Shown: positions 30,095 through 30,200 of the stretch, piece by piece
How positions within the stretch are numbered: position 1 is the stretch's first letter
Layout of the letters: every line of letters starts with the position of its first letter
Sequence record: PP925847.1
Length of the DNA: 44,738 nt
Source: Escherichia phage Zumzum
Strand: one strand, 5' to 3'
Position numbers and translations under genes: made by a program
The notes under the pieces: model-generated
Seen by the model: only the letters and a program-made list of their open reading frames with translations
Databases searched by the model: none
Told to the model about the DNA's origin: nothing

Positions 30095-30142
30095 CTCCTC
30101 TGGAATATTGAAACGGGCGCGCACGCGTGTAATAATACTTTC

Positions 30143-30200
30143 CGTCTCATTGTCTCTTATTGGTTAGCGCCGTCGCATTTTGCTTCGGCGCTTTTTTTTT
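30143..30200 (+). ncRNA. candidate ~58 nt small RNA or leader, from promoter TTGAAA-N17-AATAAT (30108-30136) to an intrinsic terminator
   Basis: Extended -10 (TG at 30128-30129); perfect 7-bp stem AGCGCCG/CGGCGCT (30166-30192) with T9; no coding potential. Confidence 0.35.

Follow-up and report, generated by a model that had tools for sequence, protein, structure and literature searches.

A conserved promoter-terminator unit in the divergent control region of Escherichia phage Zumzum, a candidate small RNA gene of Dhillonvirus

Most of the phage small RNAs (sRNAs) characterised to date come from temperate phages or prophages (PMC12197685), and the regulatory RNAs of virulent phages are poorly charted. 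We have analyzed a short unit located at positions 30108-30200 (plus strand) of Escherichia phage Zumzum (PP925847.1), a sequence of 44,738 nucleotides that we call the window. The unit consists of a promoter followed at a short distance by an intrinsic terminator and sits between two divergent operons. The phage is a virulent siphophage of E. coli belonging to the genus Dhillonvirus (HK578-like), as was every matching record with a taxonomy that we checked. These are common coliphages, found in the BASEL collection and in screens for phage therapy and for defence systems, and their central control region has not yet been dissected. Judging from the sequence, the unit is probably a functional RNA gene.

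In its design it resembles the Hfq-type trans-acting sRNAs (RybB, MicA, OmrA/B and the phage-borne DicF, PreS and VpdS), which have their own promoter, measure about 50-90 nt and share a conserved unstructured 5' region, a 3' hairpin with a long U tail after a U/A-rich stretch, and a short imperfect complementarity to ribosome-binding or start-codon regions. Both PreS and VpdS are phage products that depend on Hfq and have a link to replication (PMC12197685). Unlike these RNAs, the one predicted here resembles no Rfam family in sequence or by covariance model, and unlike the sRNAs of prophages and temperate phages it would be produced by a virulent siphophage, with its own neighbouring genes as proposed main targets. 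The c4 RNA of P1/P7 (immI) acts on the ant/icd mRNA, covering the ribosome-binding site of the downstream gene (PMC12197685). Like c4 and the CI RNA of P4, the product of the window unit would be a small RNA placed upstream of a target in the same orientation (compare the pairing with the gp59 leader described below). The c4 and CI RNAs are processed out of an operon transcript and control immunity in temperate elements, whereas the window unit has its own promoter and terminator and further candidate targets on the opposite strand (gp57 and gp58). Lambda OOP and P22 sar are RNAs of 68-77 nt with their own promoter and intrinsic terminator that repress a neighbouring regulatory gene post-transcriptionally (PMC12197685). 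The window unit would likewise give a short phage RNA with its own promoter and terminator in a regulatory region, but OOP and sar are cis-antisense and fully complementary to the overlapping mRNA, whereas here the complementarity to the targets extends over 9-16 nt. No opposite-strand transcript is predicted over 30143-30200, and there is no convincing minus-strand promoter to the right of the element. An arrangement of the OOP/sar type does not apply, since the sole predicted or annotated minus-strand promoter (P_L, see below) starts to the left and fires away. In the plasmid systems CopA/repA (R1) and RNAI (IncB/I) a small constitutive RNA limits the translation of the replication initiator. 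The analogy would hold if the phage primase-helicase, gp57, is a target; those plasmid RNAs are cis-antisense, with full complementarity and kissing loops, whereas the window RNA lies about 450 nt from the gp57 start, in a separate divergent unit, and would pair over 9-12 nt. Taken against this background, the unit would encode a base-pairing sRNA of a known type; unusual are its place in a virulent siphophage's central control region and, as likely target, the phage's own replication gene.

The unit is made up of the following parts (MFE, minimum free energy):

30108-30113, plus strand: -35 hexamer TTGAAA, followed by a 17-nt spacer
30128-30136, plus strand: extended -10, TG-T-AATAAT (TG at 30128-29, -10 hexamer AATAAT at 30131-36)
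30137-30142, plus strand: variable discriminator, separating the -10 from the predicted start of transcription
30143-30200, plus strand: predicted sRNA of about 57 nt (55-58), with a start at C30143 or G30144 deduced from the -10 geometry
30143-30165, plus strand: unpaired 5' region CGUCUCAUUGUCUCUUAUUGGUU, the candidate seed, unpaired in both the MFE and the centroid structures
30146-30155, plus strand: seed core CUCAUUGUCU, kept in the most divergent relative (L018)
30166-30192, plus strand: terminator hairpin, with a 7-bp outer stem, an internal loop, a 3-bp inner stem and a U-rich loop
30192-30200, plus strand: T9 tract (U tail), nine T counting the one that closes the stem

An earlier note on this DNA, made from the letters alone, had proposed a promoter TTGAAA-N17-AATAAT with a TG extension at 30108-30136 and a 7-bp stem with a 13-nt loop and T9 at 30166-30200, and both were found exactly there. 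The promoter matches the consensus at 10 of 12 positions and, with its 17-nt spacing and TG, has the make-up of a sigma-70 extended -10 promoter. A scan of both strands of the window returned two sites with at least 10 of 12 matches, and the unit promoter, the only one of them with TG, is the top sigma-70 match. The other is located at 39431 (plus strand, TTGAAA-N17-TATAGT), within the open reading frame (ORF) 38857-39552 and upstream of a pair of ATTGGTTGC motifs at 39874/39891. The promoter is separated from the terminator by 29 nt, and the unit contains no ORF with a Shine-Dalgarno sequence; these features predict an independent short non-coding unit. A small protein was considered and rejected: the ORFs of 48, 34 and 25 aa begin upstream of the promoter or cross the terminator, and none has a Shine-Dalgarno sequence. 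The predicted RNA has an unstructured U/C-rich 5' half (CGUCUCAUUGUCUCUUAUUGGUU), a 3' hairpin and a long U tail. The hallmarks of Hfq-type sequences, a U tail of at least 7 and a U/A-rich stretch 5' of the hairpin, are present.

To compare the unit among relatives we collected GenBank matches, IMG/VR matches of the neighbouring helix-turn-helix (HTH) protein, and hits of DNA-pattern scans of IMG/VR and metagenomes. The sample comprised GenBank records, 16 IMG/VR contigs and 12 metagenome contigs, representing about 27 distinct genomes. They fall into three sequence clades: a main clade that includes the window, a second one with about 77% identity in the region (L015/L033/L047/L074 and L020/L021), and a single very divergent contig (L018 = L036 = L056). 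The module was present in every Dhillonvirus genome sampled and was nearly invariant over the set. The -35, the TG and the -10 do not vary in the main clade or in the second (L015/L020) clade. In L018 the promoter reads TTGCGC-N17-TATTAT, and order and spacing are as in the window; the hairpin has a different sequence (10 bp, -20.4 kcal/mol, z -3.97) followed by T13, and of the body only the 10 nt of CUCAUUGUCU are retained, directly after the predicted start. The sole variable stretch of the module is 30137-42, which reads ACTTTC, AC-TCC, AATTCC or AAAAAC and carries a 3-nt insertion in L065. By contrast, all main-clade genomes share the same 30143-65; the L015 clade lacks one nucleotide of it, and L020/L021 begin it with A instead of C. 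The conservation boundary coincides with the predicted transcription start, because 30137-42 varies freely, indels included, while everything from 30143 onward is invariant in the main clade.

The terminator gives the clearest comparative signal. Its outer stem (AGCGCCG at 30166-72 with CGGCGCT at 30186-92) has G-C at 6 of 7 pairs, the 13-nt hairpin loop contains a 3-bp inner helix (GCA/UGC), and the G+C-rich stem-loop runs directly into the U tract, as in intrinsic terminators; the hairpin is annotated as a terminator in the record of phage CS16. Our automated terminator scan, with a loop limit of 8 nt, passes over it because of the 13-nt loop. The RNA 30143-30200 folds with -16.2 kcal/mol (z = -3.55), and none of 200 shuffles folded as well. 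In relatives the T tract varies from 7 to 14 T and never falls below 7. All seven outer pairs are kept in the five distinct sequence variants (100% of cells), and four of the seven show compensatory double changes (A-U/U-A; G-C/U-A/C-G; G-C/C-G; C-G/A-U). The covariation score was reached by 0 of 500 column shuffles, and slid controls were 44-51% paired versus 94% for the whole structure, in a MAFFT alignment where the L018 hairpin was kept in register with the help of artificial anchors and a single N as padding in the internal loop. In the L015 clade an A-U pair of the inner stem becomes G-U, which pairs only in the plus-strand RNA. By these comparisons it is the structure rather than the sequence of the terminator that evolution has kept. 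The combination of promoter and terminator is not due to chance, because the module is kept in every Dhillonvirus examined and the stem shows compensatory changes. The minus-strand sequence after the hairpin is AACCAAUAAG, and since it has no U tract the terminator is unidirectional (plus). A bidirectional terminator, or one serving an upstream gene, was rejected on the same grounds and because the nearest plus-strand gene upstream is about 13 kb away, in agreement with the earlier note, which had seen no such gene. That note had also expected a short non-coding RNA, possibly regulatory, and the conserved promoter hexamers, the stem covariation, the conservation that begins at the predicted +1 and the survival of the core in L018 lend support to this.

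The unit did not match described RNAs. In Rfam the best match of the region at E <= 10 was ncS54, with 17.9 bits versus a threshold of 43 and over the terminator part only; the whole window gave no match at gathering score, the C4 antisense RNA family included. A tRNA and tmRNA search of the window found no genes. No copy of 30100-30245 was found in 5,426 complete E. coli genomes, and the unit is therefore not a homologue of a host or prophage sRNA. A profile search with the HTH protein, meant for more distant relatives, returned two loci (L038 and L039), which carry unrelated homing-endonuclease-like genes and no module, and the DNA-pattern scans returned Dhillonvirus contigs and seven chance matches, with no new clade. 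The GenBank records annotate here at most a promoter or a terminator, and in none of them an RNA gene; a literature search for a transcriptome or sRNAs of Dhillonvirus or HK578 found nothing relevant. The unit would add a new family to the RNA databases.

Its surroundings are organized as follows, with the annotation of phage Envy as the guide to operon layout and gene numbers (the control region 30035-30300 is 100% identical to Envy; its identity to the other 153 matching phage records is 81-98%):

30066-30094, minus strand: leftward promoter P_L, read from the sequence, serving HTH gp58, primase-helicase gp57 and the late genes
30034 leftwards, minus strand: leftward operon, with small HTH protein gp58 (start 30034) and primase-helicase gp57 (start 29694)
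Beyond gp57, minus strand: leftward operon continued, with small genes, lysis genes, terminase, portal, head and tail
30212-30240, plus strand: main early promoter, rightward, TTGACT-N17-TAATAT (a promoter also in the HK578 annotation)
30301 rightwards, plus strand: rightward operon, with gp59 (30301), a 41-aa ORF, gp60 (30998), gp61, then further early genes
Beyond gp61, plus strand: rightward operon continued, with exonuclease, single-stranded DNA-annealing protein, DNA polymerase, helicase and methyltransferases

The HTH of gp58 is of the HTH_23 or sigma-70 region-4-like type. The GenBank record of HK578 (NC_019724) annotates three consensus promoters, one of which is the promoter of the sRNA unit; the other two match the flanking promoters that the earlier note had placed at 30066-30094 and 30212-30240. 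The spacer of the main early promoter holds GCAACCAAT, a copy of the over-represented ATTGGTTGC motif.

We have examined the translation-initiation regions of these genes for complementarity to the 5' half of the predicted RNA. There are four candidate targets:

29690-29698, minus strand: candidate target 1, gp57 start region GGCAAUGAG (AUG at 29694-29692), complementary to sRNA CUCAUUGUC (30146-54)
30281-30296, plus strand: candidate target 2, gp59 5' untranslated region and Shine-Dalgarno UAACCAAUCGGAGAUA, facing sRNA UGUCUCUUAUUGGUUA (30151-66)
30992-31005, plus strand: candidate target 3, gp60 start region GAGACAAUGGcACG, facing the sRNA 5' end CGU.CUCAUUGUCUC
30031-30056, minus strand: candidate target 4, leader of HTH gp58, UUAACCAAC-U-GGGGGCAGAACAAUGA, with the same layout of a UUAACCAA box plus Shine-Dalgarno as in gp59

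In our best model, the primase-helicase gp57 is the target most consistently supported across clades. In most genomes of the main clade, the window included, the helix has 9 bp (one G-U) and a shuffled-seed p of 0.02. In the divergent clades, ranked with each clade's own sRNA sequence, the pairing is longer. In L047, of the L015 clade, GAGACGAUGAGA faces UCUCAUUGUCUC over 12 bp across the AUG (-21.6 kcal/mol, rank 1 of 21 initiation regions), L020/L021 have 12 Watson-Crick pairs, and in L018 GACAAUGAGCAA faces UUGCUCAUUGUC with 12 Watson-Crick pairs across the AUG (-24.6 kcal/mol, rank 1 of 8). The shuffled-seed p values were 0.003 for L047 and 0.001 for L018 (family-wise 0.036 and 0.018). The pairs that flank the core differ by clade and are matched on both sides: at +6, L018 has G in the sRNA and C in the target, and L020 has U in the sRNA and A in the target. 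The earlier note had suggested target prediction against host and phage mRNAs; we ran the phage part, in which gp57 ranks first in both divergent clades and the main clade gives a weaker result.

The other three candidates pair at least as well as gp57 in the main clade. The gp59 duplex spans 16 nt with one mismatch and two G-U pairs (-17.1 to -17.9 kcal/mol, varying with the target window chosen, shuffled-seed p = 0.0025); the gp59 leader holds the sole other TAACCAAT of the window, and its box is invariant in the main clade. The gp60 duplex reaches -17.9 kcal/mol (shuffled-seed p = 0.06), and the core GAGACAATGG and the start GAGACAAUGG are invariant in all relatives that have the gene. For gp58 the values are -18.0 kcal/mol and p = 0.02, and the homologue of its leader in L047 reads UUAACCAACAGGAGACGG. 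In favour of the control-region genes as a group, the initiation regions of gp57-61 rank 11, 5, 7, 6 and 4 of 59 in the window, and their summed energy beats random sets of five genes (p = 0.0004) and 400 of 400 shuffled seeds. A search of the window for the exact seed complement, AGACAATGAG, gave just one site, internal to the tape-measure gene, which was discarded; the genome-wide duplex scan was dominated by G-U-rich false positives.

These observations suggest the following sequence of events. Host sigma-70 RNA polymerase would start near 30143/30144 from the extended -10 promoter, and transcription would stop at the strong, one-directional intrinsic terminator at 30166-30200. The 5' half of the resulting RNA, perhaps assisted by Hfq, would pair in trans with mRNAs of the genes on either side of the control region, at their translation-initiation regions. 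The core CUCAUUGUC(UC) would cover the start codon of gp57 and also that of gp60, and the segment UGUCUC-UU-AUUGGUUA would cover the box and Shine-Dalgarno in the leaders of gp58 and gp59, the first gene of each operon. Such pairing would block ribosome binding, possibly triggering mRNA decay or polarity, and its net effect might be the dosing or timing of replication and early proteins. We consider a stand-alone gene for a non-coding RNA of about 57 nt, which acts by base pairing in trans and occludes initiation regions of the control region, to be the best explanation, with roughly even chances of being correct. For the specific mechanism, occlusion of initiation regions in trans, we would put the chances somewhat below even. 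Still more tentative, and rather doubtful, is the full version, in which a constitutive sRNA of about 57 nt throttles the phage's own primase-helicase at the start codon and the first genes of both operons at the Shine-Dalgarno, as a genus-wide RNA governor of replication and its timing, akin to the copy-number antisense RNAs of plasmids but with the limited complementarity of an sRNA, and with co-evolution of sRNA and targets in the divergent lineages.

Several points weigh against this explanation. Random sequence of the same composition yields 3.7 +/- 1.7 sites of at least 10 of 12 matches, so that the promoter match alone is within chance and proves nothing, and in the L015/L033/L047/L074 lineage the promoter spacer is 15 nt. 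The gp57 duplex of the main clade is not significant genome-wide (p = 0.85), and in about five distinct genomes (YD-2008.s and EK99P-1 types) the helix is interrupted by GACCAUGAGU. The core and its targets are for the most part conserved and not covarying, and other constraints act on initiation regions. The seed, being pyrimidine-rich and containing CAU, pairs moderately with many Shine-Dalgarno and AUG regions, and therefore energy ranking in a single genome is weak evidence; gp08, gp39 and gp34 score equally well or higher. The set gp57-61 was defined post hoc, with the data already seen. In its 3' part (ATTGGTTAG) the body is similar to the over-represented DNA motif ATTGGTTGC, and for this reason some of the conservation and of the apparent complementarity (TAACCAA boxes) could reflect binding sites of a protein on DNA.

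Among the other explanations, the one that survives best, though we find it unlikely, is that the unit works as a transcriptional decoy or insulator and the RNA itself has no function. The promoter would compete with or modulate P_L, or titrate RNA polymerase or alter local supercoiling, and the terminator would shield the early operon. The geometry is suggestive: the -35 of P_L (TTGACA, 30094-30089) and that of the sRNA promoter are divergent and 13 bp apart, the terminator ends 11 bp upstream of the -35 of the main early promoter, and promoter and terminator are the most clearly conserved parts. However, a spacer RNA needs no invariant unpaired body of 23 nt (in the main clade) beside six freely varying nucleotides before +1, CUCAUUGUCU survives in L018 where nearly all else changed, and the body is non-randomly complementary to the neighbouring initiation regions. 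The decoy or attenuator that the earlier note offered as an alternative is in this respect the less likely choice, with an unpaired body more conserved than a spacer requires. If the RNA were inert, the unit would still be a compact natural promoter-terminator insulator between divergent operons.

It is also rather improbable that the sRNA is real and chiefly hits host mRNAs or host sRNAs, by reprogramming or as a sponge, with the phage complementarity being secondary. Known phage sRNAs do act on host RNAs, namely lambda PreS (dnaN) and VpdS of VP882 (PMC12197685), and no single phage target is as strictly conserved as the 5' core. On the other hand, the top phage target is the same gene, gp57, in both divergent clades, with different flanking pairs.

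A cis-acting leader or attenuator appears less probable again. Regulated read-through past 30200 would place UGUCUCUUAUUGGUUA in the leader, where it would fold onto the gp59 Shine-Dalgarno box (30281-96) and silence mRNAs initiated upstream. In favour of this, 30151-66 and 30281-96 are complementary over 16 nt, on one strand and at a distance of 115 nt, and the unit is oriented like the early operon. The terminator, though, is strong (7 G+C-rich pairs and U9), the fold shows no alternative antiterminator pairing, and the main early promoter, being downstream of it, would supply most gp59 mRNA without this leader. Moreover, in most relatives a 136-bp insertion separates the two segments, neither of which is changed, and the conserved core CUCAUUGUC is not used in the gp59 pairing.

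Very improbable is a DNA-level element, that is, conserved sites for a phage DNA-binding protein (of ATTGGTT type, for HTH gp58 or the primase-helicase) or an origin structure where promoter and terminator only look like such: ATTGGTT occurs 20 times versus 5.5 expected and is clustered in intergenic regions including this one, a palindrome TTGGTTAATGACCAA lies 80 bp to the left and the cumulative GC-skew minimum is near 30000, but the motif copy in the body is imperfect (ATTGGTTAG), the stem covariation preserves pairing and not sequence, the A-to-G change yields a G-U that is a pair only in the plus-strand RNA, the T tract is variable in length yet never shorter than 7, gene orientation accounts for the GC-skew switch, and a far better iteron-bearing origin candidate exists at 26897-27429. 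An origin primer RNA was not supported for these last two reasons.

With the base-pairing sRNA as the preferred explanation, the unit offers a tractable way into the question of how these phages dose replication and early proteins, being a conserved, sRNA-like element that lacks an annotation and has the strongest host-type promoter match of the genome.

Some features of the neighbouring genes deserve description. In HK578 (L019 717-1145, compared with window 29705-30034) the HTH protein has a different and longer N-terminal half; it has 142 aa and 41% identity to the window protein, and conservation is limited to the C-terminal HTH. The leader to the left of the sRNA promoter is replaced there, and the sRNA module itself is unchanged. 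On the other side, gp59 (30301-30819, plus strand) is a very acidic protein of 172 aa with tandem repeats (KKEVVEDDDD...KKAPAKGK) and no match in Pfam; the name "DNA recombination nuclease inhibitor gamma" appears without verifiable evidence in some GenBank records of the region and does not clearly belong to gp59. Most Dhillonviruses have a gp59 5' untranslated region about 136 bp longer, downstream of the main early promoter. This insertion (for example L001 2157-2305, equivalent to about 30254-30270 in the window) is missing from the window, Envy, JLBYU37 and YD-2008.s. Rfam gave no match for it, its fold is ordinary (z +0.6), and an ATG within it, in frame with gp59, would add 60 aa, which may account for the longer coding sequences annotated in, for example, phage Ioannina. 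A second strong intrinsic terminator (30958-30977, plus strand, GGCCCGC-ATATTA-GCGGGCC and a T run) lies between the 41-aa ORF and gp60, with a conserved stem and a variable loop in relatives. It is inside the early operon, and therefore gp60 and the genes downstream would need read-through or another promoter.

Finally, the motif (A)TTGGTTGC(A) is strongly over-represented in the window: ATTGGTT occurs 20 times versus 5.5 +/- 2.5 expected, a number reached by none of 100 shuffles. The 19 sites of the motif are:

First part: 18, 5482, 16119, 16133, 26365, 26919, 26950, 27041, 27321, 27356
Rest: 27410, 30225, 33104, 33120, 36932, 39874, 39891, 41552, 41564

The copies are mostly clustered in intergenic regions, oriented with the downstream gene, and often stand directly before TATAnT or supply a TTGCNN -35. 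One possibility is a promoter or operator element peculiar to the phage, perhaps bound by gp58 with its sigma-70 region-4-like HTH. Palindromes of the form TTGGT-N5-ACCAA are found at 30049-30063, 16133-16147 and 26912-26926 (three versus 1.1 expected), and the copy at 30049, within the HTH gene leader and a short way downstream of P_L, is a possible operator for autoregulation. The intergenic region 26897-27429, after the primase-helicase gene and read on the minus strand, combines a palindrome GATATGGGAATTCCCATATC and three direct repeats GCGCG(C/T)ATTGGTTGCC with a G+C-rich hairpin and about six copies of GCGGGACA. It has the appearance of an iteron-type origin of replication or of a densely packed regulatory region.

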